Of a stretch of DNA of 51,743 nucleotides, positions 11,692 to 45,618 are shown one piece after another. The stretch's first letter is position 1, and each line of letters begins with the position of its first letter. This DNA is from Minisyncoccota bacterium (GTDB taxonomy: Bacteria > Patescibacteriota > Minisyncoccia > Phycocordibacterales > PALSA-1337). The stretch is from NCBI GenBank assembly GCA_036516895.1, contig DATDZD010000016.1:1-51743 (forward strand). Reading direction: 5' to 3'. The notes beneath the pieces were generated by a model that was not told the origin of the DNA, made no database searches, and saw nothing but the letters and a program-made list of their open reading frames with translations. The position numbers and the translations under genes are program-made.

Positions 11692-12900
11692 ATGTTACAT
11701 TCAATATCTTGTAAAAATTTTTACTCTTTTGGCGATATAACCGCCTTGAGTTTTGTAGTGAATGACAATGCTCCACAAAACAATGGGTATTTTACTGCAC
11801 CTTCAGGAGTACGCCTCTCAAAAGTCGAGACAGTTATCGGTCCAAACGCTTCCGGAAAAACAAATCTCTTAAAGACTATTCCATTTTTAAAATGGCTTAT
11901 CGTTGATTCTTTTAATTTGAATCCACAATCTCCAATAATCCTTCGCCCCTTCATGTTTGGTGGATATAAAAACAAACCAAGTGAACTCTCTGTTGTATTT
12001 GAGATTGCTACAGGTGTGTATACTTACAGTTTTGTCCTTGATCAAACAAAGATAATTTCAGAAGAATTGAAATTGACTAGCATGGCAAAAGAAAAAAAGT
12101 CTAGTAAAAAGATTTTTTCACGAGTATGGAATGAGACAACCAAACACTATGACCTTGAGGGTGATAATTTTAATCTTCCTAAAGGATTTGAAAATCTATT
12201 ACGAACAAATGCGAGCGTTATAGGTGTTGCCATGCGCCTGAACCATAAGGAAAGTCAGGAAATAGCTAATTTTTGGCAGAGTATAGAAACAAATGTCAGC
12301 GAAGGTGGTTGGATTGGAGATCATATGTTTATTAACCGAGGTGTTCAATTGGCTGAAGTACTCAATTTCTTTAGCGGAAAAGAATCTCTTAAAAAAGAAG
12401 CTGAAAAACTTCTTGCACGTTTTGATCTTGGTTTAAATGCATTTGAAATCAAGAAAGAAAAACAAGAAAATGGAGTATCAATGAGTGTTCAGGTATCTCA
12501 CTCATTTGGTGATCAAAAAGAAATGTTACCAATTCAATATGAATCTTCAGGTACAAAGCAACTGTTTATTCTTCTTAAACATATCTTACAAGCACTCAGT
12601 ACTGGTGGTGTCGTTATCCTAGATGAGTTTGATGTTAACCTTCATCCAGAAATGATGCTGGCTCTGTTTGACTTATTTATTGATCCGAATACAAATGAAA
12701 AGAAAGCTCAGCTTCTATTCAGCACACACAACCATTATATTTTAAGCAAACTTGATAAATATCAGATAACGCTTATTGAGAAAAACGATAAAGGCATGAG
12801 TGAATCTTGGCGCCTTGATGAAATGACCGGTGTACGAGCAGATGACAATTACTACACAAAGTACATCGCCGGTGCTTATGGGGCAATTCCTAAAATATAA
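11692..12900 (+). CDS. AAA_21/ABC-type ATPase (AbiLi / RloA-like, OLD-family ATPase module)
   Basis: Walker A GPNASGKT, signature-like SSGTKQ, Walker B VVILDEFD and an H-loop FSTHNH, with a long insertion between the Walker motifs as in SMC/ABC-like defence ATPases. Confidence 0.85.
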   Translation: MLHSISCKNFYSFGDITALSFVVNDNAPQNNGYFTAPSGVRLSKVETVIGPNASGKTNLLKTIPFLKWLIVDSFNLNPQSPIILRPFMFGGYKNKPSELSVVFEIATGVYTYSFVLDQTKIISEELKLTSMAKEKKSSKKIFSRVWNETTKHYDLEGDNFNLPKGFENLLRTNASVIGVAMRLNHKESQEIANFWQSIETNVSEGGWIGDHMFINRGVQLAEVLNFFSGKESLKKEAEKLLARFDLGLNAFEIKKEKQENGVSMSVQVSHSFGDQKEMLPIQYESSGTKQLFILLKHILQALSTGGVVILDEFDVNLHPEMMLALFDLFIDPNTNEKKAQLLFSTHNHYILSKLDKYQITLIEKNDKGMSESWRLDEMTGVRADDNYYTKYIAGAYGAIPKI

Positions 12901-12905
12901 ATACC

Positions 12906-13337
12906 ATGTCTAGGACCAACCCATTCAAAAAGAAAAGACGAGCAGCGAGTAGAACCTTACTAGTTTTTGGTGAGGGCATGTGCGAAGAAATGTTCCTGAA
13001 ACATATTAAAAGTTTGTACTCATATATCGCAAATATCGCAGTTACTGTTCGAAAAGGAAAAGGTGGTACGGCATTTGATGTGGTAATTGACTCAGATAAA
13101 ATACCTGGCGATTTTGATAAAAAAGTTGTCGTCTTAGATAATGACAAGAGTACAGAGGAAATGCAACAAGCACGAAAAGAGGCTAATAACCGAGGAATTA
13201 TTTTAATTGAAAACACTCCTTGTATCGAAGCTCTTTTGCTCTCAATTCTGGAATCAGGTACCGAATTTTCTTCAAAAACATCTGCATGGTGTAAGAAAGA
13301 ATTTGAATTAATGGCCCTCCCCCCAAAATTTGCATGA
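12906..13337 (+). CDS. RloB-like Toprim-domain protein (AbiLii-like); the last codons and stop lie in the IS left end
   Basis: Basic N-terminus followed by LLVFGEGMCEEMF (Toprim Glu), VVVLDNDK (DxD) and ENTPCIEALLL (resembling SNPCFElWlL). It starts 5 nt after the ATPase stop. Confidence 0.7.
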   Translation: MSRTNPFKKKRRAASRTLLVFGEGMCEEMFLKHIKSLYSYIANIAVTVRKGKGGTAFDVVIDSDKIPGDFDKKVVVLDNDKSTEEMQQARKEANNRGIILIENTPCIEALLLSILESGTEFSSKTSAWCKKEFELMALPPKFA

Positions 13338-13375
13338 TAAACTTGTAATTAATAACTTAATTAATATACAAGCAT

Positions 13376-13630
13376 ATGAAATACAATAGAGTATCTTTAG
13401 ATGTTAAGGAACAAATAATCAGTAGAATTAAAAATGATGGAGTAACTATAAAGCAAGCTAGTGTAGAACACGGAGTGCCAGAATCTACAATAGCTACTTG
13501 GATTGCTAAAAGAGTAGAAGGACAACCTAGTCTGGGAGATATTATAAAGATCAAGAAAGAAAATGATCAATTGAAGATTCTCTTGGGAGAAATTACTCTT
13601 AAGCTATCTGAGACCCAAAAAAAGAAGTGA
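13376..13630 (+). CDS. IS3-family transposase OrfA (HTH)
   Basis: 84 aa with an HTH region (IKQASVEHGVPESTIATWI) and a leucine-zipper-like C-terminus. It ends just after the slippery site. Confidence 0.85.
   Translation: MKYNRVSLDVKEQIISRIKNDGVTIKQASVEHGVPESTIATWIAKRVEGQPSLGDIIKIKKENDQLKILLGEITLKLSETQKKK
13618..13624 (+). promoter_or_regulatory. programmed -1 ribosomal frameshift site (A AAA AAG)
   Basis: The orfA zero-frame codons are AAA (13619-21) and AAG (13622-24). The -1 frame is continuous with orfB (frame of 13627). Confidence 0.7.
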
Positions 13631-14415
13631 GGTGTAGAAGTGATACCTCCAAAACTCTCAGGGCCAAGGAGTTGGGAGTTTCTCTCAGAAGTCTCTACTA
13701 CAGACCCAGACAACCAGACAAAGATTGGCAACTTAAATGTCAAATTGAGGAAGTGCTACGAGAATATCCCTCATATGGTTCTCCACGCATAGCACTTCAT
13801 CTCAAACGTAACCATAAGCCGATTGAACGAGTTATGAAACTCTTCGGTATCAAAGCATATCGTAGAAGAGGTAGGAAATGGAAAAAGACCAAGAATATCA
13901 AGGTAATATATCCAAACCTACTCATTACAACATACCCACAGTATGAGAATCATATTTGGGTATCCGACTTTACCTACATACCATTCCAAGGAAAAACCAT
14001 CTATGTTGCAACAGTAGAGGATCTATTCACTAGAAAGATTGTCGGAGTGTCAGCATATACAACTCATGCGGTTCAACTAATTCTCTCTGCGTTTATGAGT
14101 GCTCTACATAATAATCCTAGACCTATCATTTTCCATTCAGACAATGGTAGTGAATACAATTCAGAGGTATTCATAGGTACTCTACAAACAGTTGGAACAC
14201 AAATCTCCAGATCAGCTCCTGGATGTCCATGGGAAAATGGATATCAAGAATCCTTCTACTCACAATTCAAGGTAGATCTGGGTGATCCTAGTAGATTTAA
14301 GAATATTGGAGAACTAGTATATGAGATATATCACTTGATTTATATCTACAACCACAAAAGAATACATACTTCTTTAAAAATGTCACCGGTACAGTTTGCA
14401 TTAAAAAGTCGCTAG
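13627..14415 (+). CDS. IS3-family transposase OrfB (DDE/rve integrase core), probably expressed as an OrfAB fusion
   Basis: DDE triad contexts WVSDFTYI, FHSDNGSEY and PWENGYQESF. It overlaps orfA in the -1 frame. Confidence 0.9.
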   Translation: MRCRSDTSKTLRAKELGVSLRSLYYRPRQPDKDWQLKCQIEEVLREYPSYGSPRIALHLKRNHKPIERVMKLFGIKAYRRRGRKWKKTKNIKVIYPNLLITTYPQYENHIWVSDFTYIPFQGKTIYVATVEDLFTRKIVGVSAYTTHAVQLILSAFMSALHNNPRPIIFHSDNGSEYNSEVFIGTLQTVGTQISRSAPGCPWENGYQESFYSQFKVDLGDPSRFKNIGELVYEIYHLIYIYNHKRIHTSLKMSPVQFALKSR

Positions 14416-14723
14416 GAATACAATTAACTCAATACAAGTTTAGTGTGCAATGAAATGGGGGAAGTACAGAGGGTTAGATGATAGGAATCATTTGGTCGTC
14501 GGACATCCATATCCGAGACCCGGGCTTTTAAATAAACGACAAAATGGCGGAAAATAAATCAGAGCATCTTTAAGTACGGGCTAGTTTACTAGCTTATACT
14601 TTAAAAAAATTGTGAACCGCAACGCATTTTACCAAAAACTTATTCACTAATCAGTGAAACTGTTGTTTGATAAGCGTAGCAAAGACCTAACAAAGGTTAA
14701 TCCAATTAAAGATGTCCCATTTC

Positions 14724-23831: not shown

Positions 23832-24332
23832 ATGGCACGCACAAAATTAGAAAAAAAGGAGATTATAAAGAAAGTTGAGGATATTGTAAACTCTGCCGAG
23901 TCGGTTGTTTTTGTCAATTTTCACGGACTTAAAGTGGGGGACACCATGAAGGTTCGTAGACAGTTGAGAAGCGAGGATGTGGAATTTTTTGTGGCAAAGA
24001 AAACGCTTGCTCGCAAAGCCCTTGAAAGTGAAAATTTGGGCAAGAAAATTGAAAGCAATCTGCCGGAATTGAGAGGAGAATTGGGTCTTGCGTATAGCAA
24101 AGACCTCACTGCTCCAGCTCGCGAAATATATGGATTTCAAAAAAAATTCAAAGACAGCATCTCTATACTAGGAGGCATATTTGAGTCAAAATATATGACA
24201 AAAGAAGAGATGTTGGTCATTGCTCTTATTCCTAAGCAAAAGACTCTTCAGGCCATGTTTGTCAATGTCATCAACTCGCCTATTCAGGGCTTTGTCATGG
24301 TTTTGAGTGAAATAGGCAAGAAAAAAGTCTAG
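23832..24332 (+). CDS. rplJ: 50S ribosomal protein L10
   Basis: 166 aa with a typical L10 N-terminus (KKEIIKKVEDIVNSAESVVFVNFHGLKVGDTMKVRRQLR). It is followed by rplL. Confidence 0.93.
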   Translation: MARTKLEKKEIIKKVEDIVNSAESVVFVNFHGLKVGDTMKVRRQLRSEDVEFFVAKKTLARKALESENLGKKIESNLPELRGELGLAYSKDLTAPAREIYGFQKKFKDSISILGGIFESKYMTKEEMLVIALIPKQKTLQAMFVNVINSPIQGFVMVLSEIGKKKV

Positions 24333-24448
24333 GGAAAATTGGACAAAATTCTTTCTCTGGACACAAGCTCTTTTTTCTTCGGCAAGCTCAGAAAAAAGAC
24401 TTCTGTCCATCAACGAATTTTGTCTCAATTTTCCGAGCCGATTTTACC
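24333..24448. repeat. about 102-nt palindromic element plus a shared 15-mer in the rplJ-rplL spacer
   Basis: GGAAAATTGGACAAAATTC (24333-51) pairs with GAATTTTGTCTCAATTTTCC (24415-34). TGGACA pairs with TGTCCA. An inner perfect 10-bp stem is TCTTTTTTCT / AGAAAAAAGA. Next comes CGAGCCGATTTTACC (24434-48), the reverse complement of 15467-81. Confidence 0.6.
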
Positions 24449-26443: not shown

Positions 26444-26499
26444 ATGACTATTGATTCTAACTTTCAAATCTTTATTTTTTATTGTATTATGATTTTAAT

Positions 26500-29139
26500 A
26501 TGAAACCTTATGACCACCTAAAGATAGAGAAGAAATGGCAGAAATATTGGGAATCAAAGAAGCTTTTTCAGGCAAAAGGAGATACTAAAAAAGATTTTTT
26601 TCGTAAAAAATTCTACTCTCTCATAGAATTTCCTTATCCTTCTGGAGACGGTCTTCATGTTGGACATATACGAAGCAATACAGCAATGGATATTATTTCT
26701 CATAAACGCAGGAGAGAAGGATACAATGTACTTTATCCCATTGGTTGGGATGCTTTCGGTCTTCCTACAGAAAACTACGCTATCAAGACTGGTATTCAGC
26801 CAGCAGTGGTCACGAAGAAGAATAGCGATATATTTAGACGCCAGCTCAAAGCTCTCGGCTTTTCTTTTGATTGGTCTAGAGAAATAAATACTACCGACCC
26901 AAAATATTACAAATGGACACAATGGATTTTTCTTAAATTTTTTGAAAAAGGTTTGGCGTATAAAAAGAAAATGTCTATCAACTGGTGTCCGAAGGACCTT
27001 ATTGGTCTTGCCAATGAAGAAGTGGTGGATGGTTGTTGCGAGCGATGTGGGACTCCTGTGGAAAAACGGGAGAAAGAACAATGGATGTTGGCTATCACAA
27101 AATATGCAAACCGCCTAGATAAAGACTTGGATGATGTTGATTATTTGGAAAAGATAAAGATACAACAGAGGAATTGGATAGGGAAGAGCGAGGGGGCGGA
27201 GATAGAATTTGAAATTATCTTTAAAAATGGTGGCCACTCCGGCAAAATAACAGTATATACCACTAGACCAGATACAATATTCGGCACAACATACCTAGTG
27301 TTTTCTCCTGAACACCCTTGGGTTACTCTTGCTATCAATACAAATCACAAAAAAGTTTTTGATAATATAGAAGAAGTCAAAAGATATATTATAGAAGCTA
27401 AAAACAAAAAAGAATATGAAAGAATTTCAGTTGAAAAAGAAAAAACTGGAATTGAGCTAAAAGGTGTTATGGCCATAAATCCCGCCACAAAAGAAGAAAT
27501 TCCAGTTTGGATTGCGGACTATGTTCTAGCGGATTATGGCACTGGAGCTGTGATGGCGGTGCCGGCTCATGATGAGAGGGATTATGATTTTGCGAAGAAA
27601 TATGGGTTAGTAATCAAACAAGTCATAACTCCTTATAATACTGAAGTCGCAGGTTGTTTTATAGGTAAGGGCAAAATAATAAATTCAAATCAATTTAACG
27701 ATAAAGATTCAGAATCAATAAAAAAAGAAATTACGGTTTTTGTTGGTGGAAAATGGGTCACAAAATACAAACTCCGCGATTGGATATTTTCTCGCCAAAG
27801 ATATTGGGGGGAACCGATACCTGTGGTGCATTGTGAGAAATGTGGAACCGTGCCCGTTCCAGAAAAAGATTTGCCGTTGAAACTTCCAAAAGTTAAAAAT
27901 TATAAACCGACAGAGACAGGAGAATCTCCTCTTGCAAGCATATCAAAATGGGTCAATACAAAATGCCCAAAATGCAAAGGAAAAGCAAAAAGAGAGACTG
28001 ACACTATGCCAAACTGGGCGGGGTCAAGTTGGTATTATTTGCGTTATATTGACCCAAAAAATAAGAAAGCATTTGCTTCTATGGAAAAATTGGAATATTG
28101 GCTTGGCAAAGACAATACTGGAGGTGTGGACTGGTATAACGGAGGTATGGAGCATACTACTTTACACCTCCTCTATTCTCGTTTTTGGCATAAATTTCTT
28201 TTTGACTTGGGATTAGTACCAACAAATGAACCATACAAGAAGCGCACTTCGCATGGTCTCATATTGGCGGGGAAAAATGAGAAGATGTCAAAATCAAAAG
28301 GCAATGTGGTAAACCCTGACGATATTATAAAGCATGTAGGAGCAGATGCTTTGCGTCTATATGAAATGTTTATGGGACCTTTTGAACAACATATTTCTTG
28401 GGATGAAAATGGCGTGGTTGGTACGAAGAGATTTATTGAAAAGGTTTGGAAATTGCAGGAGAAGGTTGTGGACAGCTATGGTCAAGTTGATATCACAAGC
28501 GAAATTGCCATAGCTAATGGACAGGTTTCCGCGTCCTCTCAGCGACAGCAGGTCTCCCTTCGTGGCTTCGCCAGTCGGGAGATTGCTCTCGCTTGCGGAC
28601 GCGACTTAACCATAGACAGAGGACGCGGATACGAAACTCTAGATATGGTAAATACTGACACACTCATCCACAAAACCATAAAAAAGGTTTCAGAAGATAT
28701 TGAAAATATGAAGTTCAATACCGCTATCAGCTCTATGATGATATTGGTTAATGAGCTTGAAAGACAGCCAACAATTACAATAGAGCATTACTCAATTCTA
28801 TTACAACTTCTCGCGCCTTTTGCTCCGCATGTCACAGAAGAATTGTGGGTAAATTTTGGCGAAAATACAAACAGCAACAAGTCAATTCACCTTTCTCCGT
28901 GGCCTCTATTTGACCAAAGAAAAATTATGGAAGCTTCTACAACTATTATGGTCCAAATTAATGGAAAAGTCAGAGGAAGTTTTATTGCAGATATTAATGC
29001 GAGCGAAGAAATATTAAAAAATACAGCTTTGAATATACGCGAAATAAGAAAATGGATAGATGATAAAGAAATATTGAAGACTATTATTATAAAAGGGAAA
29101 TTGGTTAGTATAGTGACGCGAGATTATGGAACATCATAG
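26500..29139 (+). CDS. leuS: leucyl-tRNA synthetase (carries an in-frame palindromic element at 28521-28605)
   Basis: HIGH (GLHVGHIRS), KMSKS (EKMSKSKGN), a CP1 editing domain and FNTAISSMM. The ATG at 26500 (MKPYDHLKIEKKWQKYW) is preferred over the TTG at 26482. Confidence 0.95.
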   Translation: MKPYDHLKIEKKWQKYWESKKLFQAKGDTKKDFFRKKFYSLIEFPYPSGDGLHVGHIRSNTAMDIISHKRRREGYNVLYPIGWDAFGLPTENYAIKTGIQPAVVTKKNSDIFRRQLKALGFSFDWSREINTTDPKYYKWTQWIFLKFFEKGLAYKKKMSINWCPKDLIGLANEEVVDGCCERCGTPVEKREKEQWMLAITKYANRLDKDLDDVDYLEKIKIQQRNWIGKSEGAEIEFEIIFKNGGHSGKITVYTTRPDTIFGTTYLVFSPEHPWVTLAINTNHKKVFDNIEEVKRYIIEAKNKKEYERISVEKEKTGIELKGVMAINPATKEEIPVWIADYVLADYGTGAVMAVPAHDERDYDFAKKYGLVIKQVITPYNTEVAGCFIGKGKIINSNQFNDKDSESIKKEITVFVGGKWVTKYKLRDWIFSRQRYWGEPIPVVHCEKCGTVPVPEKDLPLKLPKVKNYKPTETGESPLASISKWVNTKCPKCKGKAKRETDTMPNWAGSSWYYLRYIDPKNKKAFASMEKLEYWLGKDNTGGVDWYNGGMEHTTLHLLYSRFWHKFLFDLGLVPTNEPYKKRTSHGLILAGKNEKMSKSKGNVVNPDDIIKHVGADALRLYEMFMGPFEQHISWDENGVVGTKRFIEKVWKLQEKVVDSYGQVDITSEIAIANGQVSASSQRQQVSLRGFASREIALACGRDLTIDRGRGYETLDMVNTDTLIHKTIKKVSEDIENMKFNTAISSMMILVNELERQPTITIEHYSILLQLLAPFAPHVTEELWVNFGENTNSNKSIHLSPWPLFDQRKIMEASTTIMVQINGKVRGSFIADINASEEILKNTALNIREIRKWIDDKEILKTIIIKGKLVSIVTRDYGTS
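28521..28605. repeat. 85-nt GC-rich hairpin element, copy A (in frame within leuS)
   Basis: About 90% identical to 32728-32811. Its arms are CGCGTCC...AGCGACAGCAGGTCTCCC and GGGAGATTGCTCTCGCTTGCGGACGCG. It is translated as QVSASSQRQQVSLRGFASREIALACGRD. Confidence 0.75.
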
Positions 29140-31685: not shown

Positions 31686-32723
31686 ATGGCTTATACCCCA
31701 ACTCCCACATCGCCTTTTCCCAGAGATTCTTTATCTGGCAGAAATGTCTCACCTATCTATACTTTTCCGTGGAAATCTTTCTTATGGAGATTTTTCTCTG
31801 TCGCATTGGCGATTCTCATCATTCTATTTTTTTATAATACTCGTCCACCAAAAGCTTTTCCGTCTGGCTTTATTTTCCATATAGAGAAAAATACATCTCT
31901 CTCCGATATAGCCGACATGTTAGTGAAGAAAAGAATCATTCGTTCACAGTTTATTTTCAAAGCAAGCACGGTTTTTTTCAATCTTAATTTGAAAGACGGT
32001 GTTTTTGCTGGCGAGTATCTTTTTCAAGAACCGACAAATGTATGGACTACGGCCTACAGAATGGTAAAAGGCGACCAAGGTCTTCCCAGAATAAAAATAT
32101 CTATTCCAGAGGGAAGTACGGTAGATGATATAGCTTTTATTCTTCAGAAAGAAATTCCAAACTTTAATGCTCCATATTTTGTAAAAGTCGCAAAAAGTGC
32201 TGAGGGTTATCTTTTTCCGGATACATATTTCTTTTATCAAAATACTACCGCTCTTGAAATCGTGGATTCTATGCGTAGGACATTTGATGAGAAATTACAA
32301 GGGCTTATTTTCAATATAGGGCTTTCTAGAAGAAAAATAGAAGATATTGTAACAATGGCATCCATAATAGAGAAGGAGGCCTCAAGCACAAAAGATAGGA
32401 TGCTTATTGCCGATGTTTTATGGAAACGCCTTGATGAAGGGATGTTGCTTCAGACAGACCCAACTGTTCTTTATATCACTTCAAATCTTAATAACGGTCA
32501 TGTTTCTATAGCCGATACAAAAATAGATTCTCCATACAATACTTATAAATACAAAGGTTTGCCAAAAGGACCCATTTCAAATCCTAGTTTGGATGCTTTG
32601 AAGGCGAGTATAAATTCTACAAAGAATCCATATTTTTATTACTTGGCGGATAAAAAGGGGAATATGCATTATGCTGTGGATTATGAAGGGCATTTGGAGA
32701 ATAAAGATAAATATTTGAGGTAA
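31686..32723 (+). CDS. mltG: endolytic murein transglycosylase MltG (YceG-like)
   Basis: N-terminal TM segment and YceG signatures (EGYLFPDTYFF, ASIIEKEA, LQTDPTVLY, YNTYKYKGLPKGPISNP). Confidence 0.9.
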   Translation: MAYTPTPTSPFPRDSLSGRNVSPIYTFPWKSFLWRFFSVALAILIILFFYNTRPPKAFPSGFIFHIEKNTSLSDIADMLVKKRIIRSQFIFKASTVFFNLNLKDGVFAGEYLFQEPTNVWTTAYRMVKGDQGLPRIKISIPEGSTVDDIAFILQKEIPNFNAPYFVKVAKSAEGYLFPDTYFFYQNTTALEIVDSMRRTFDEKLQGLIFNIGLSRRKIEDIVTMASIIEKEASSTKDRMLIADVLWKRLDEGMLLQTDPTVLYITSNLNNGHVSIADTKIDSPYNTYKYKGLPKGPISNPSLDALKASINSTKNPYFYYLADKKGNMHYAVDYEGHLENKDKYLR

Positions 32724-32727
32724 AAGA

Positions 32728-32811
32728 ACAGTATCCGCAACCTCTCGGCGACAGCAGGTCTCCCTTCGTGGCTTCACCAGTCGGGAGACTGCTCTCGCCT
32801 GCGGTTGCGAC
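32728..32811. repeat. 84-nt GC-rich hairpin element, copy B (intergenic, 5 nt after the mltG stop)
   Basis: A paralogue of 28521-28605. Its differences include paired, stem-preserving substitutions (CGCGTCC/GGACGCG versus CGCAACC/GGTTGCG). Confidence 0.75.
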
Positions 32812-32968
32812 AAGTTTGGAAAGTTGCAAAAAATTATTTTTTTATGAATATTTTAACTATTTCTCTTGCTTTAAATACATTTTGTAGTAATATGATTATT
32901 AGACAGCACCTTTTGTAAGGTGCTTTGACTTTTTGAAAACCACAAACAAAAATCAACGACATAAACCT

Positions 32969-35900
32969 ATGATATATAGAATGTATCGTCAGATTAACAG
33001 TGGCTTGGAATATGGTTTCTATATTGAAACCACAAGCCAGCTGTCAGGGCAATCACTCAAAAAATTAAAATGGCTTATTGCGGAAACATTTGAAGTGGAA
33101 AAAACTAGACCAGGACCTCAATACCAAGGTAGATTTGTGGTTGAGATAGGACCACGATTGTCAATTGAAACCCCATTTTCATCCAATGCTGTGGCAATAG
33201 CGCATAACATGGATATTCCTGAAGTCATTCGCATCGAGCGGACTCATCTGCACATTACAGGTGACTCTGGAAAAGGAAGGGCATGGGCACTACAAAAAAT
33301 TGATATAATGACCGAACAACATTACCCAAATGGGATTGGGGGCTTTGACACCGGCACTGCGCCGGAACCAGTCAAAGTTGTTGACCTTCTCGGTTTTGGA
33401 CAACTTCTTCTCAGGGAAATAAACTCTGAGCTTGGTTTGGGCATGGATGACAATGATATTGAATATTACTACAATCTTTTTGTACACACTCTCAAAAGAA
33501 ATCCGACTGATGTTGAATTGTTCCAGCTAGGCAATGCGAACAGTGAGCACAGCCGGCACTGGTACTTCAAAGGCAAGATGGTCATCGATGGACAGACAAT
33601 AGAAAAGACTTTGATGCAAATCGTCCAATTTCCATTGGTCAATCTCAATAGGCAGAACAGACAGCATACGAGTCTGGTCGCCTTCAAAGACAACGCCGGA
33701 GTAATCAAAGGATTCAGCACACGCCTTATCCTGCCAGTCACTCCGGGCAAACCTTCGGAAATGCGAGTCCTCGATAAGGTGGTCCATATCACTTGTACCG
33801 CAGAGACGCACAACCATCCGACATTCGTCGCGCCCTTCCCCGGTGCCCAAACAGGCGCAGGTGGACGGATACGCGACAACACAGCAGTCGGGCGTGGAGG
33901 CATCGTTGGTATCGGTGTCGCCGGTTACTTTGTCGGAAACCTTTTCATTCCCGGATATCAAATTCCGGGCGAGGTTGTCGGCAGAGACAAGCCATCGAAA
34001 TACGCTTCGCCTCTCTCAATTCTCATTGAAGGCAGCAATGGCGTATCAAGCTATGGCAATCAGTTCGGCGAACCCCTCACACTGGGCTTTACCCGAACTT
34101 TCGGTAAGCTTATCGGAAGCGAATGGCGTGAACCTCGCAAGCCGATACTCTACAGTGGTGGCGTTGGTCATTTATTTGATGGACACATCACCAAAGAGAC
34201 ACCTGAAGTTGGAATGCTCATCGTGCGCATCGGCGGTCATGCCTATCCCATCGGGGTCGGCGGAGGCTCAGCTTCAAGTATGATGCAGGGAGAGAATTCC
34301 GAGTCGCTCGATTGGAACTCCGTTCAGCGCGGAAACGCAGAGATGGAGAATCGTGCGAACCGGGTCATTCGAGCCTGTGTCGAAATGGGAGATAAAAATC
34401 CCATCTCGAGCATTCACGACCAAGGTGCTGGAGGACCATCGAATGTTCTTACTGAACTCCTCGAACCTCTCGGTGGCAAGATTGACATTCGTGGCATCGT
34501 GCTTGGCGACAAGACGATGTCTGTTCTCAAAATCTGGAGCGCCGAATTCCAAGAAGGATATGGACTCCTGATCAGGGTAGAACAGGTCGGGCTTTTCAAG
34601 TCGGTTTGCAAACGCGAGCGCGTCAACTGCGAAGTTCTAGGAGAGATTGACGGCAGTGGAAACATTGTCGTTCTTGATTCTCAAAACGGGACAACGCTCG
34701 TCGAACTGAACCTGGGGCATATTCTTACGAACATGCCCCAGAAGACATTCGAGTCAAACCGGCGGACCGAAAGCTTCAAGCTTTTGGTCTTGCCGAATAT
34801 CACTATCGGCGAAGCAATCCGGACGGTATTTAAACTTCCTAGTGTGGGCTCAAAGGGATTTCTTGTCAACAAGGTAGACCGAAGCGTCACTGGGCTCGTA
34901 GCACAACAGCAATGTTGTGGTATCGCTCAGATTCCGATTGCAAATGTCAGTGTCAATGCGCAGAGCCATTTCGGTCTGACTGGATCCGCTTGCGCTATCG
35001 GAGAAAATCCGATTCGGATGCTCATTGATTCGGAAGCTGGCGCTCGAATGGTTGTGGGAGAATTCCTCACCAATATGGCGTCAGTGGTAATCAGCAACAT
35101 CGGAGACATCCGGTGCCGTGCAAACTGGATGTGGCCTGCAAAACTGCCTCACGAAGGTGCCCTTCTCTATGACGCCACTCAAGCCATGTCAAATTTGATG
35201 ATAGACTTGGGCATCGCAGTTGATGGAGGAAAGGACAGCCTTTCAATGGCTGCGATGGTACAAGGAAATCTAGTAAAAGCTCCTGGAAGTTTGGTGATAT
35301 TTGGATACGCATCCGTGCCTGACATTACGAAAAAGGTTACACCGGATATAAAAAAACCCGGCAAGAGTGTTTTGGCACTCATTGATCTTGGACAAGGTAA
35401 AAATCGCCTTGGCGGTTCTGCTCTGGCTCAAGCGTTCAATCGACTCGGTGACGAAACACCTGATGTTGATGATCCGAAACTCCTCAAGAATGCATTTGAG
35501 GTAATGCAGATTATAATCAACGAAGAACTGATTCTGTCTCTGCATGATCGAAGCGATGGTGGCCTCATAACTGCAGTTGCTGAGATGTGCATGGCGAGCC
35601 GGTGCGGATTCACTCTAAAGGTCACGAGTTGGAATGTGGTGGACCACATGGATGTTATGGATGAGTTATTCGCCGAAGAGCTCGGTTTCATCATGGAACT
35701 TGACCCTCAAAATGAAAAACTAGTTCGAGTTATCTGTGATAGATTTGGCATTCCATTCACATGGATTGGAACAACTGAATCAACTGAAAGGTGTGTCATT
35801 CGTGATGATTACAAAGAAATATTTAGTGTAACTACCAGAGAACTTCGTCTTTGGTGGGAATCAACAAGCTATCATATTGAGAAACTGCAGGTTACCCCCG

Positions 35901-36856
35901 AATGCGCTAAGGTGGAATATTTTGGACATAACTATCGTTTGCTTAATAATATCGATACAGCTCCATCGTATAAGCTCTCATTCATTCCAGCAACAACGCT
36001 CCCGGAAGTTTTGGAAGCACGAGACAAACCTCGCGTTGCAATATTGCGCGAGGAAGGTACGAATGGTGACAGAGAAATGCAAGCTGCATGTCTGGCAGGA
36101 GGTCTTGCTCCATGGGATGTCACAATGAGTGATCTCCTTGAAGGCAGGATCGATCTGGATTATTTTCAGGGTATCATCTTTGCCGGTGGATTCTCCTATA
36201 TGGATGTGTTTGATAGTGCGAAAGGATGGGCAGGAACAATTCTTTTCAATGAAAAGTTGAGAGAGATGTTCGACAAATTCTATTACGCTCGCCGAGATAC
36301 GTTTTCACTCGGTGTGTGTAATGGTTGTCAGCTCGTGGCTCTTCTTGGACTTGTTCCGTTCGTTAGTGATGCGGAGAATCAGGTTTATGGCAGACCAACA
36401 GATCAGTATCAACCAAGGTTTATTCACAACACTTCGGGCAGGTTTGAGTCTCGATGGGTACAGGTGGAGGTTCTCCCAAGCCCATCGGTGCTTCTTGCCG
36501 GGATGGAAGGTTCAAAACTTGGTGTGTGGGTCGCTCATGGTGAAGGGCGCTTAGTGTGCTCTCACAAAAAAGTGGCTGGGAGAATAAAAGAACACAACCT
36601 TGCTCCTTTCGCATTCATTGATCCATCAGGGTGTCGAACAGAGGTGTATCCGTACAACCCAAATGGTTCGCCAGACGGGATTACGGCACTCTGCTCTCCG
36701 GATGGTAGGCATCTTGCAATGATGCCTCATCCAGAACGTTGTTTCCGTTTGTGGCAATGGCCTTGGATGCCAGAGTCTTGGAGAAAGCTCGAGGCTTCAC
36801 CATGGCTTAGAATTTTTCAGAATGCCAGAACATGGTGTTGGGAAAACAGGGCTTAG
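32969..36856 (+). CDS. purL: phosphoribosylformylglycinamidine (FGAM) synthase, single-chain large PurL
   Basis: About 1295 aa comprising an N-terminal domain, duplicated AIR-synthase-like FGAM synthetase domains and a C-terminal class I glutaminase (GVCNGCQL Cys, MMPHPER His). The ATG at 32969 is preferred over the TTG at 32933. G+C is about 52% (line 34081-34140). Confidence 0.93.
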   Translation: MIYRMYRQINSGLEYGFYIETTSQLSGQSLKKLKWLIAETFEVEKTRPGPQYQGRFVVEIGPRLSIETPFSSNAVAIAHNMDIPEVIRIERTHLHITGDSGKGRAWALQKIDIMTEQHYPNGIGGFDTGTAPEPVKVVDLLGFGQLLLREINSELGLGMDDNDIEYYYNLFVHTLKRNPTDVELFQLGNANSEHSRHWYFKGKMVIDGQTIEKTLMQIVQFPLVNLNRQNRQHTSLVAFKDNAGVIKGFSTRLILPVTPGKPSEMRVLDKVVHITCTAETHNHPTFVAPFPGAQTGAGGRIRDNTAVGRGGIVGIGVAGYFVGNLFIPGYQIPGEVVGRDKPSKYASPLSILIEGSNGVSSYGNQFGEPLTLGFTRTFGKLIGSEWREPRKPILYSGGVGHLFDGHITKETPEVGMLIVRIGGHAYPIGVGGGSASSMMQGENSESLDWNSVQRGNAEMENRANRVIRACVEMGDKNPISSIHDQGAGGPSNVLTELLEPLGGKIDIRGIVLGDKTMSVLKIWSAEFQEGYGLLIRVEQVGLFKSVCKRERVNCEVLGEIDGSGNIVVLDSQNGTTLVELNLGHILTNMPQKTFESNRRTESFKLLVLPNITIGEAIRTVFKLPSVGSKGFLVNKVDRSVTGLVAQQQCCGIAQIPIANVSVNAQSHFGLTGSACAIGENPIRMLIDSEAGARMVVGEFLTNMASVVISNIGDIRCRANWMWPAKLPHEGALLYDATQAMSNLMIDLGIAVDGGKDSLSMAAMVQGNLVKAPGSLVIFGYASVPDITKKVTPDIKKPGKSVLALIDLGQGKNRLGGSALAQAFNRLGDETPDVDDPKLLKNAFEVMQIIINEELILSLHDRSDGGLITAVAEMCMASRCGFTLKVTSWNVVDHMDVMDELFAEELGFIMELDPQNEKLVRVICDRFGIPFTWIGTTESTERCVIRDDYKEIFSVTTRELRLWWESTSYHIEKLQVTPECAKVEYFGHNYRLLNNIDTAPSYKLSFIPATTLPEVLEARDKPRVAILREEGTNGDREMQAACLAGGLAPWDVTMSDLLEGRIDLDYFQGIIFAGGFSYMDVFDSAKGWAGTILFNEKLREMFDKFYYARRDTFSLGVCNGCQLVALLGLVPFVSDAENQVYGRPTDQYQPRFIHNTSGRFESRWVQVEVLPSPSVLLAGMEGSKLGVWVAHGEGRLVCSHKKVAGRIKEHNLAPFAFIDPSGCRTEVYPYNPNGSPDGITALCSPDGRHLAMMPHPERCFRLWQWPWMPESWRKLEASPWLRIFQNARTWCWENRA

Positions 36857-37013: not shown

Positions 37014-38276
37014 ATGAATATGGCTAGAATTTGGAATAGATATAAACAGACGAATACCTCTCTTGGCAAGAAGGTCTTTATTGGCATGTCCGGAGGAGTG
37101 GATAGCTCTGTTTCCGCTGTATTACTAAAAAAACAAGGATATGATGTGACCGGGGTTTTCATCAAAGTCTGGCAACCTGAATGGCTTGCAAATACTTCTG
37201 TTTGCACTTGGAGAGAAGACCGACTTGACGCCATGAGAGTGGCGGCAAAGATTGATATTCCTTTTATTACTCTTGATTTAGAAAGGGAATATAAGAAAGA
37301 AGTGGTAGACCATATGATAAGCGAATACAGGGTTGGAAGGACACCTAATCCTGATGTGATGTGCAACGCTTATGTGAAATTTGGCGGATTTTTTGATTGG
37401 GCTATGAAACAAGGCGCGGATTTTGTGGCGACGGGGCATTATGCACAGATTGTTAATATTAAAAGCAATGGGGCAGAATTGACTTCTGAAGGAACTCTCG
37501 GAGCCGCGAAGGCGGCGAGAGGGAGCGCGCCGTCAGCAGACGGCGACGCGTGTCCTGAAGAAGTCAATTCTGCCCCATTGCTTGCTATGGGTATTGACTC
37601 AAATAAAGACCAATCATATTTTCTCTGGACATTAAAAAGAGAACAATTGCTACACATTTTATTTCCCGTTGGAAATATTTCAAAACCAGAAGTGAGAAAA
37701 TTGGCAAAAAAATTTGGTTTACCAAATGCGGAAAAAAAAGATAGTCAAGGTCTTTGTTTTATAGGTAAAATAGATGTTAAAGAATTTCTATCTCATTATA
37801 TGCCTGCGAAGAAAGGCAATGTTCTAGATGTAAAAGGGAATATAATCGGCGAACATGACGGTTCTTTCTTTTTTACCATAGGAGAAAGACATGGCTTTAC
37901 TATTACGAAAAAGACTCCGAATGACGAGCCATATTATATTATCTCAAAGGATATAAGAGAAAATACCATAACTGTTTCAAATAAATCCAAGCAAGGTCAT
38001 TTACCAGATGGTCAAAGAGAGGTGAAATTGAAAGATGTTAATTGGATAAGCGGAAAGCCACCAAAAGTTGGGAGAATATTGCAAGCGAGATCAAGATATC
38101 GTGAGCCATTGCAAAAAATAAAAATCATAGATGAAGTGATAAAAACAGTCGTTACTGTTCACAATCATGAATTAACCATACAATTTGAAAGACCGCAATA
38201 TACTCTTTCATCTGGGCAATCTCTAGTCATATATGATGGAGATATTTGTTGGGGGGGAGGGGTAATTGTGATATAA
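37014..38276 (+). CDS. mnmA: tRNA-specific 2-thiouridylase MnmA (carries an in-frame palindromic element at 37463-37583)
   Basis: PP-loop [10 protein letters not shown], the ATGHYA motif, [10 protein letters not shown] and a catalytic Cys context (DSQGLCFIG). Confidence 0.95.
   Translation: [420 protein letters not shown]
37463..37583. repeat. 121-nt GC-cored palindromic element in frame within mnmA
   Basis: A 25-nt perfect inverted repeat (37463-37487 versus 37559-37583) is extended by 4 more base pairs. The core has two hairpins (37495-37521 and 37525-37549). Line 37501-37560 is 73% G+C. Confidence 0.8.
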
Positions 38277-45063: not shown

Positions 45064-45618
45064 ATGGGAAAAAAAAGAATTGTCACAACCGAAGAAAAGC
45101 CGGGCAATACTGGGAAAAAAGTTCCAGAAAAAGGAATTGAAAATATTTCCGAAAATATTTCCAATGATATGTCAAAGAACGTTAGAAAGGATACAACAAG
45201 TAGAGATAAAAGCTCTGAGAAAAAAAAAGAGACAAATGACTCTGCTTCAAAACAGGTTTCCTTTCGTAAGAGACTTGATACTGGCATACTTCATGTTCAA
45301 TCCACATACAACAATACCAAAGTCCTTTTGACGAACAATAATGGTCAAGCAATCATGTGGTCTTCAAGCGGTTCTCTTGGTTTCAAAGGAGCCAAGAAAG
45401 GCACGCCTTTTGCAGCGGCGAAAGTCGGCGAAACCTTGGCTGTAAAAGCCCAATCTTTGGGTTTGAAGGAGATTTCTGTCGTTGTAAAAGGAGTCGGTTC
45501 TGGACGAGAGTCGGCCATTAGAGGATTTATTTCAAAAGGGGTAATAATATCTTCCATAAAAGATTCAACTCCTGTTCCTCACAATGGACCCCAACCGAAG
45601 AAGCCTCGCAGAGTCTAA
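45064..45618 (+). CDS. rpsK: 30S ribosomal protein S11 with an N-terminal extension of about 55 aa
   Basis: The S11 core starts near GILHVQSTYNNTKVLLTNNNGQ and ends PHNGPQPKKPRRV. It is preceded by a low-complexity Lys/Glu/Ser-rich extension. Confidence 0.88.
   Translation: MGKKRIVTTEEKPGNTGKKVPEKGIENISENISNDMSKNVRKDTTSRDKSSEKKKETNDSASKQVSFRKRLDTGILHVQSTYNNTKVLLTNNNGQAIMWSSSGSLGFKGAKKGTPFAAAKVGETLAVKAQSLGLKEISVVVKGVGSGRESAIRGFISKGVIISSIKDSTPVPHNGPQPKKPRRV

Follow-up and report, generated by a model that had tools for sequence, protein, structure and literature searches.

What is a GC-rich hairpin doing, in frame, within the gene for an essential aminoacyl-tRNA synthetase? This is the question raised by a 51,743-nt stretch of DNA from a Minisyncoccota bacterium (GenBank assembly GCA_036516895.1, contig DATDZD010000016.1, positions 1 to 51,743, forward strand), which as a whole is described here as the 'window'. 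The gene is leuS, encoding leucyl-tRNA synthetase (LeuRS), and its hairpin is one of a number of related copies that I refer to here as 'family A'. Family A is best explained as a small family of GC-rich palindromic repeats of Paceibacteria-type Patescibacteria. That is, with a probability of roughly 0.6, this is a low-copy, non-autonomous palindromic repeat which is similar in its behavior to the Rickettsia palindromic elements (RPEs), and which is tolerated by its host protein as a surface loop.

The host gene, the parts of its insert, and a second copy of the hairpin are found as follows:

26500..29139, plus strand: leuS, 879 aa from the ATG at 26500 (the open reading frame, or ORF, as called mechanically starts at a TTG at 26482)
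28474..28650, plus strand: the full 'long-form' insert in leuS, 59 codons, SYGQVDITSEIAIANGQVSASSQRQQVSLRGFASREIALACGRDLTIDRGRGYETLDMV, as delimited by linker lengths, BLASTN, and the low-confidence segment of an AlphaFold model
28475..28513, plus strand: the long form's 5' extension, GCTATGGTCAAGTTG...GCCATAG, which is the 3' arm of the element in inverted and degenerate form
28523..28608, plus strand: the core hairpin, leuS copy, as based on covariance model (103.2 bits), fold, and consensus structure
28606..28632, plus strand: the 3' extension of the long form, TTAACCATAG, including a second CCATAG, and then AGAGGACGCGGATAC (28618-28632)
32729..32814, plus strand: the core hairpin, intergenic short-form copy (covariance model, 100.9 bits), between the yceG stop (32723) and the purL start (32933)

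The ORF encodes a genuine LeuRS, with structure matches to the T. thermophilus and E. coli enzymes ranging from E = 1e-215 (T. thermophilus 1H3N) to 1e-188. Its homologues number in the thousands, the nearest of them being Patescibacteria proteins (Paceibacteria, Minisyncoccia). The linker running from the RFIEKVWKL helix to HKTIKKV is 71 aa long in the window, essentially the length of about 70 aa that had been given for it originally. The corresponding linker is 31 aa long in T. thermophilus LeuRS 1H3N and is just 12-18 aa in most of the 120 closest LeuRS homologues, with the extra residues in the window LeuRS numbering some 55-57. The insert thus defined is of ~177 nt, or 59 codons, rather than the 85 nt and 28 aa of the original prediction, which placed it at 28521-28605. 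The sequence so described is present, though with a start that adds 4 nt ahead of the hairpin proper (28525-28605), and it is indeed read through in frame within the LeuRS ORF (26482/26500..29139), as ...GQVSASSQRQQVSLRGFASREIALACGRDL... in translation. Also as predicted, a second and intergenic copy, of about 90% identity, is seen at 32728-32811, that is, 4 nt past the YceG/MltG stop and ~120 nt ahead of PurL; the two are 88.8-88.9% identical over 80-81 nt. The concern that the insert might be an artefact of assembly can be set aside, as three strain variants of the 879-aa protein (P0001, P0125, and P0124, the last being that of the window) have the identical insert on independent contigs, at least seven of them, from NCBI, JGI, and ENA.

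An AlphaFold model of LeuRS, built using a 120-sequence alignment, has a mean predicted local distance difference test score (pLDDT) of 84.7 and a predicted template modelling score (pTM) of 0.79; an earlier, 17-sequence run (pLDDT 51) was too poor to use. The sole segment with a pLDDT of less than 50, residues 661-715, coincides with the insert, where low values are partly to be expected as few of the aligned sequences contain it. This segment sits between two well-predicted helices, i.e., 636-655, which is the last before the LeuRS anticodon-binding bundle, and 719-735. So modelled, the window insert fits a disordered surface excursion of ~57 aa at a domain boundary.

The two copies in the window are islands of ~63% GC within a window of 37-38% GC, with fold energies of -49 kcal/mol (z = -5.4) for the leuS copy and -44.2 kcal/mol (z = -4.8) for the intergenic one. 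A 24-mer that is common to both occurs twice in the window versus an expected zero times (100 shuffles). The core of the leuS copy, for which the covariance model finds no opposite-strand match up to E = 10, consists of an inner conserved part, 28535-28598, along with a variable but complementary outer stem, 28529-28536 pairing with 28597-28604. Where the two copies differ, those differences are compensatory, e.g., GCGTCC/GGACGC versus GCAACC/GGTTGC.

The same anatomy is seen across the family, the core of which, at ~62-64 nt, is CCTCTCRGCGACARCAGGTCTCYC-TTCG-TGGC-NNN-GCCA-GTCG-RGAGACTGYTCTCGCYTGYGG. Its outer stem, of 6-8 bp, differs among copies yet always is complementary; overall, cores span ~62-86 nt and long forms roughly 150-180 nt. 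A consensus structure from eight copies has 28 pairs, with 96.4% of cells paired (33-47% in slid controls), and ten of these pairs are altered on both sides, a number equalled by none of 500 shuffles. No variation is seen in the internal loop, CTTCG/GTCG, or in the apical stem, TGGC/GCCA, other than one G:U in copy L009 and a longer apical segment which replaces the motif in copy L012. The hairpin, that is, is maintained by compensatory change. It has no match in Rfam 15, which gives no hit over the whole window at gathering thresholds; in a permissive Rfam scan of 28300-28800, the hits, to snoRNAs and lncRNAs, are all at chance level (E of at least 1) and lie outside of the element. ARAGORN finds no tRNA or tmRNA in the window.

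Copies beyond those of the window were sought in three ways, using an exact 21-mer pattern on public collections, the contigs of insert-bearing homologues, and an nhmmer profile together with a covariance model on all of the DNA fetched. The result is 11 distinct family A copies, found in three contexts:

LeuRS linker, forward relative to the gene: window, L006, and L001/L002 (protein P0024)
LeuRS linker, reverse relative to the gene: L008 (P0029), L009 (P0098), and, by its peptide, P0036
Loop of an RlmI-like methyltransferase (PF10672), just before S-adenosylmethionine (SAM) motif I, reverse: L005 (from a Ca. Taylorbacteria metagenome-assembled genome, or MAG), L007, L010, and L011
The same methyltransferase loop, forward and in another frame: L012
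The yceG-purL spacer, intergenic: window

Six or more organisms have family A in this one LeuRS linker, and both orientations are represented among them. The methyltransferases with the element, from five organisms, are P0127, P0133, P0134, and P0136 (reverse frame) along with P0213 (forward, another frame), and the loop which receives it has a base length of 19 aa. Orientation is unambiguous, in that the scores of one strand are ~81-106 bits (or 49, for the copy in L012, which is diverged) and those of the other at most 30, though relative to the G-rich strand, or GC skew, there is no bias (~4 forward, 6 reverse). As the peptide from one orientation, SQRQQVSLRG.ASRE.ALACGR, is unrelated to that from the other, ESSLPTG.ATKG.LLSPRG, the conserved unit is the nucleic acid rather than the protein. 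The element furthermore is stop-free in five frames, or in all six for those copies with CGG in place of CAG, such that insertion of a length that is a multiple of three leaves the host ORF open. Every coding copy in fact is both stop-free and a multiple of three in length, and this holds for both genes, for either orientation, and for three or more frames. The leuS of L006, on a 3.3-kb, coverage-2 groundwater contig, does have an in-frame stop, at 1991-1993, but upstream of the element; this likely is a sequencing error and less probably the mark of a pseudogene.

The proposal that the sequence is a repeated element and not native LeuRS sequence, as made from the window's two copies, accordingly has held up with 11 copies in three contexts. 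It had been allowed at the same time that leuS sequence might simply have been duplicated into the spacer, with the peptide then expected among LeuRS homologues. Some homologues do share that peptide at the same site (P0024/L001 and L006), but the duplication scenario fails as an explanation because there are reversed copies in the LeuRS linker, there are copies in an unrelated methyltransferase gene, and copies from other organisms are nearer to the spacer copy than is the resident one, at 96% identity for L007 and 94% for L006 versus 90% for leuS of the window.

Family A looks to be scarce rather than abundant, and its distribution is patchy. The 21-mer pattern, which fits six of the 11 known copies, has one hit among 185,579 GTDB representative genomes, in the Ca. 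Taylorbacteria MAG, and two in JGI metagenomes, while a degenerate 30-mer scan of viral contigs found no match. With the 59-aa insert peptide as query, HMMER returned three hits from 1.84 billion cluster representatives, which at 50% identity seldom carry the insert, and all three were spurious (RCC1-like and similar repeat proteins). Among the 120 LeuRS homologues both empty and filled sites are seen, a comparison which the original prediction had called for, with five filled by family A. These five are scattered on a neighbor-joining tree, each with an insert-free sister. Family A is likewise found in five of 120 methyltransferase homologues, and in two further methyltransferases there are short motifs that resemble decayed remnants (PLSPKGH, DLLSPR).

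How copies resemble one another is informative as to their history. The leuS copy L009 and the methyltransferase copy L010, both of one MAG (GCA_031384385.1), have the same derived, covarying variant, AATGGATCTATC/GATAGACCAT, and are 84% identical, as opposed to 69% for L009 and the other leuS copy in reverse orientation. Similarly, methyltransferase copy L007 is 96% identical to leuS copy L006, and methyltransferase copy L005 is 93% identical to leuS copy L001. Judged by these identities, similarity between copies follows genome or lineage rather than host gene, which would require exchange between loci, i.e., gene conversion or re-insertion.

The long form of the element consists of the core plus partial inverted copies of its arms. 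Its 5' extension matches the reverse complement of the 3' arm at ~22 of 32 positions, as compared by eye; in the DNA fold, 28474-28515 pairs as a separate stem; and this extension appears in alignment with both L006 and L007. Of the 3' extension, which also carries ACTTAACCATAG, the portion AGAGGACGCGGATAC is an additional inverted copy of the element's 5' end, and this segment recurs in L007, there as ACTTGACCATAGCCAGAGGTCG. The architecture is common to the window leuS, the L006 leuS, and the L007 methyltransferase gene, with 126-138 nt of BLASTN homology, and since leuS and methyltransferase copies have that same architecture, the long form would appear to have been moved, or converted, as a unit. 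Direct repeats of CCATAG bracket the core in leuS (28508-28513 and 28610-28615). As CCATAG(C), such repeats are found to both sides of the core in the window and L007 long forms, with only the upstream copy in L006, while no direct repeat is seen at short-form copies. As the long forms are homologous across this repeat, they count as one event. The long form may be a nested self-insertion. Recombination sites such as attC were considered by eye and rejected, as neither L006 nor L007 keeps the GTTRRRY-like match that the window has in its 3' extension.

The sites that family A occupies are not reserved to it. A second and unrelated hairpin, family B (motif RGLSER...ASSAGR), is found in the LeuRS linker of P0052, L003 11858-11980 (= L004 6907-7029), where its fold energy is -55 kcal/mol (z = -6.3). 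It is found as well in LeuRS P0050 and P0005 and in methyltransferase P0243, at the same two sites, and further, other inserts are present at both of these. This occurrence of unrelated hairpin families at the same two sites favors permissive loops that collect hairpins over a target that is specific to family A. BLASTN searches with family B (L003 leuS), and with a third hairpin, family C, from mnmA of the window, found no other copies in 211 kb. The methyltransferase loop before motif I, as a separate observation, extends to 50-79 aa in P0185, P0203, P0211, P0218, P0219, P0234, and P0235, with diverse low-complexity inserts, that of P0211 (IPANAGIHVSS) resembling another translated repeat. 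This loop seems to be a general insertion hot spot.

Under the preferred reading the element would be non-autonomous DNA, either selfish or, presumably, neutral, which is copied or converted between a few loci within one genome. It would be the hairpin that is kept, as DNA or RNA and by selection or templated repair, rather than the peptide, with copies persisting only where the residues added, as to the putatively translated leuS segment, do no harm. Spread in this case might be via single-strand, hairpin-dependent transposition or conversion, as effected by an enzyme. Several points weigh against such an account. Copy number looks low, with two copies in 51.7 kb, none further in ~160 kb of related loci, and few matches to the 21-mer elsewhere. 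Conserved termini were not found, nor a cognate transposase, nor, at short-form copies, any duplication of the target site. The leuS copies have diverged about as much as their surroundings, i.e., 65-88% identity for the core and 71-85% for flanking leuS DNA. The same codon position is reused in leuS and in the methyltransferase gene, which is odd for random insertion, and such same-site recurrence fits ancient vertical inheritance with many losses, or instead site-specific homing, at least as well as it does random insertion followed by filtering. Lastly, translation itself is predicted, from open frames.

Might the hairpin instead be a signal? A cis-acting nucleic-acid structure, bound as DNA or RNA by a host factor and recruited to leuS, to the rlmI-like gene, and to the purL leader, is possible though unlikely, and conceivably would serve in co-regulation, as a site for RNase III or for stability, or as an inter-domain pause site. 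Invariant loop and bulge nucleotides together with a paired but freely varying outer stem do make for the pattern of a recognized structure rather than of transposon termini. Copy number, too, is low, with the same sites used in two translation-related genes, and genome-specific variants that are common to both loci of one MAG could reflect co-evolution with the factor. Both orientations at the same LeuRS site, however, imply mRNA loops which are complementary across lineages; most relatives are without the element (115 of 120 LeuRS and ~113 of 120 methyltransferases); unrelated hairpin families at the same two sites point rather to permissive sites; and neither is there an Rfam match nor was the intergenic hairpin called by a terminator scan. 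About as unlikely is a Patescibacteria-specific hairpin cassette, neither junk nor a classical transposon, which would be driven by homing or conversion, would reoccupy the LeuRS linker and methyltransferase loop in either orientation, and would be kept uniform per genome via a hairpin-recognizing factor. If this is true, it would amount to a new mechanism by which in-frame DNA is moved or maintained in ultra-small genomes, and the cassette might have a cis-regulatory role too. A site-specific, homing-like element as such, inserting repeatedly and in either orientation at the same leuS and methyltransferase targets, would yield same-site recurrence without invoking many losses, and would be consistent with carriers that are scattered over the LeuRS tree, with the identical junction (EKVxxG / element) in P0029 and P0098, two distant carriers, and with similarity by genome or lineage. 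I nonetheless consider it to be improbable: the leuS, methyltransferase, and intergenic sites have no flanking motif in common, a filter for permissive sites more simply accounts for unrelated families in the same two loops, the apparent decayed remnants suggest old insertions that are eroding, and no endonuclease or transposase candidate was found.

Two other possibilities concern the protein. One is that the segment is a native, lineage-specific LeuRS module under protein-level selection, with a piece of it copied secondarily into the spacer. The same peptide at the same site in some LeuRS homologues, and a divergence of the element that approximates that of flanking leuS, are as this would have it, but the idea is highly improbable and indeed already contradicted, given reverse copies at the same site that encode an unrelated peptide, the element's presence in an unrelated methyltransferase gene in two frames, compensatory substitutions at the nucleotide level, an insert that is the model's sole disordered segment, and a spacer copy that resembles foreign copies more than it does the leuS copy of its own window. 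The other is that the segment is excised from the mRNA, or that ribosomes skip it in the manner of T4 gene 60 and mitochondrial 'byp' elements, either of which would leave SQRQQVSLRGFASR untranslated. Fungal mitochondria in fact harbor GC-cluster, double-hairpin, and byp elements, which are GC-rich hairpins that have invaded coding regions of AT-rich genomes with gene function kept, and a very stable GC-rich hairpin in an AT-rich genome is what is seen here as well, with translation of the segment being a prediction. The byp elements, though, are organellar, and as the ribosome passes over them they have no need to be in frame, while the coding copies of family A all are open, in frame, and multiples of three in length, whatever the gene, orientation, or frame in which they are found, properties that would be unneeded were the segment skipped. 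Nor did a look by eye reveal a take-off/landing codon pair or other bypass signal, and bypass therefore is just as difficult to credit as is a native module. A low-copy palindromic repeat, tolerated where its residues are harmless, remains the preferred account.

Two other features of the window are as follows:

32933-36856: purL (large FGAM synthase, 1307 aa), of 42-48% GC versus ~37% for the window
37463-37588, within ORF 37014..38276: the mnmA hairpin insert (family C), 126 nt, 75% GC, a three-way hairpin

The gene order ychF-leuS-sigma70-DUF8128-yceG-(response regulator)-mnmA-nrdR-like is kept in relatives. The purL gene is missing from the yceG-mnmA interval of syntenic relatives, with the intergenic hairpin found at its upstream junction, and purL probably was horizontally acquired. 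This intergenic copy was considered as an intrinsic terminator as well, but the scan did not call the hairpin, the only terminator-like site in 32400-33100 being at 32905-32924; a T run starts ~25 nt beyond the stem. The mnmA element has a fold energy of -87.5 kcal/mol, with 31-nt outer arms that are 94% complementary. It would translate in frame to ~39 aa (KSNGAELTSEGTLGAAKAARGSAPSADGDACPEEVNSAPL), a segment that is missing from the MnmA of three syntenic relatives, and it is unrelated in sequence to the leuS element. The mnmA case thus is real, and the claim that two translation genes within 10 kb carry in-frame hairpins stands.

The window's only insertion sequence (IS) is IS3-like (rve), and its transposase, 13627..14415, was rejected as a parent of the hairpin as its ends are AT-rich and unrelated. 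It follows an AAA_21 (AbiEii-like)/RloB pair at 11692..13337, with AT-rich inverted arms to either side of the transposase (13330-13358 and 14422-14450), and 11692-14450 looks like a small mobile or defence islet. Elsewhere, ribosomal protein S11 (45064-45618) has a 73-aa N-terminal extension ahead of its Pfam domain (residues 74-183), and a 34-nt AT-rich inverted repeat, 74% complementary, is found at 24321-24445, between rplJ (L10) and rplL (L7/L12).

How, then, does family A compare with what is known? By the features that define these groups, i.e., size, variable termini, no target duplication seen at short-form copies, no parent IS or REP-associated transposase found, and an apparently low abundance, family A would not be an RPE, nor a miniature inverted-repeat transposable element (MITE), nor a repetitive extragenic palindromic (REP) sequence. 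It is similar to REPs and to the bacterial interspersed mosaic elements (BIMEs) that they form, mobilized by REP-associated tyrosine transposases (RAYTs) of IS200/IS605-like Y1 type, in being an imperfect, GC-rich palindrome with genome-specific variants, and in that it is the hairpin rather than the termini that is conserved. Paired inverted arrangements are seen with BIMEs, and the long form of family A resembles a partial inverted pair. REPs, though, are of 20-40 nt, extragenic, present in hundreds of copies, and possess a conserved 5' tetranucleotide, whereas family A is of 62-86 nt and is mostly intragenic. There is no RAYT/Y1 transposase among the 38 Pfam-annotated ORFs of the window, and no RAYT gene was seen in the window or in the related loci.

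MITEs with open reading frames include ERIC, 107-bp Correia/NEMIS species, and YPAL (PMC2229807), and protein-coding palindromic repeats are known, as cited in that same source, from Wolbachia and Methanocaldococcus jannaschii. In common with these, family A is small, structured, and non-autonomous, possesses stop-free frames that allow for in-frame fusion, and would yield transcripts that form stable hairpins. It also is dispersed, over three contexts, with orthologous sites that are filled in some genomes and empty in others. It differs from MITEs in that neither conserved terminal inverted repeats matching those of an IS, nor a parent IS, nor, at short-form copies, a duplicated TA or other target could be found, and in an abundance that appears far lower.

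The closest likeness is to RPEs, which are palindromes of 105-146 bp that form in-frame fusions in 19 conserved Rickettsia genes, and for one of which, in gmk, both translation and retained enzyme activity have been demonstrated (PMC2229807, PMC10969869). The RPE-1 to RPE-10 families are those of Ogata et al. (2000, 2002), for which these same two sources serve as reviews. Like RPEs, family A is a short palindromic repeat that forms a long stem-loop, has copies both between genes (the yceG-purL spacer) and in frame within housekeeping genes that are conserved (leuS and that of the methyltransferase), in a bacterium with a reduced genome, adds its peptide at what the model suggests is a tolerated surface location, and has no association with a transposase. 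Membership among RPEs by descent is implausible, however, because the host, by its LeuRS relatives, is a Patescibacterium. The family A core furthermore is shorter, at 62-86 nt (with a long form of ~177 nt), is GC-rich in an AT-rich genome, has termini that are its most variable part, and apparently is present in few copies per genome versus tens.

A search of the literature for in-frame palindromic repeats or MITEs in Patescibacteria, or the candidate phyla radiation (CPR), returned no description of them. Protein-coding palindromic repeats, hitherto known mainly from Rickettsia and Wolbachia, thus would now extend to Patescibacteria/CPR, and there to an essential aminoacyl-tRNA synthetase and an rRNA methyltransferase. 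Selfish hairpin DNA may in this manner be a recurrent route to the gain of loops by proteins of reduced genomes. Such inserts also would inflate the apparent novelty of proteins, and variability of linkers, in CPR annotations, and can mislead alignments and domain predictions. Beyond these parallels there are features that have not been emphasized for RPEs, namely the use of one gene site across lineages in both orientations, and by unrelated hairpin families as well, along with the similarity of copies between different loci of one genome. It is these that turn the movement and persistence of such elements into a testable question.

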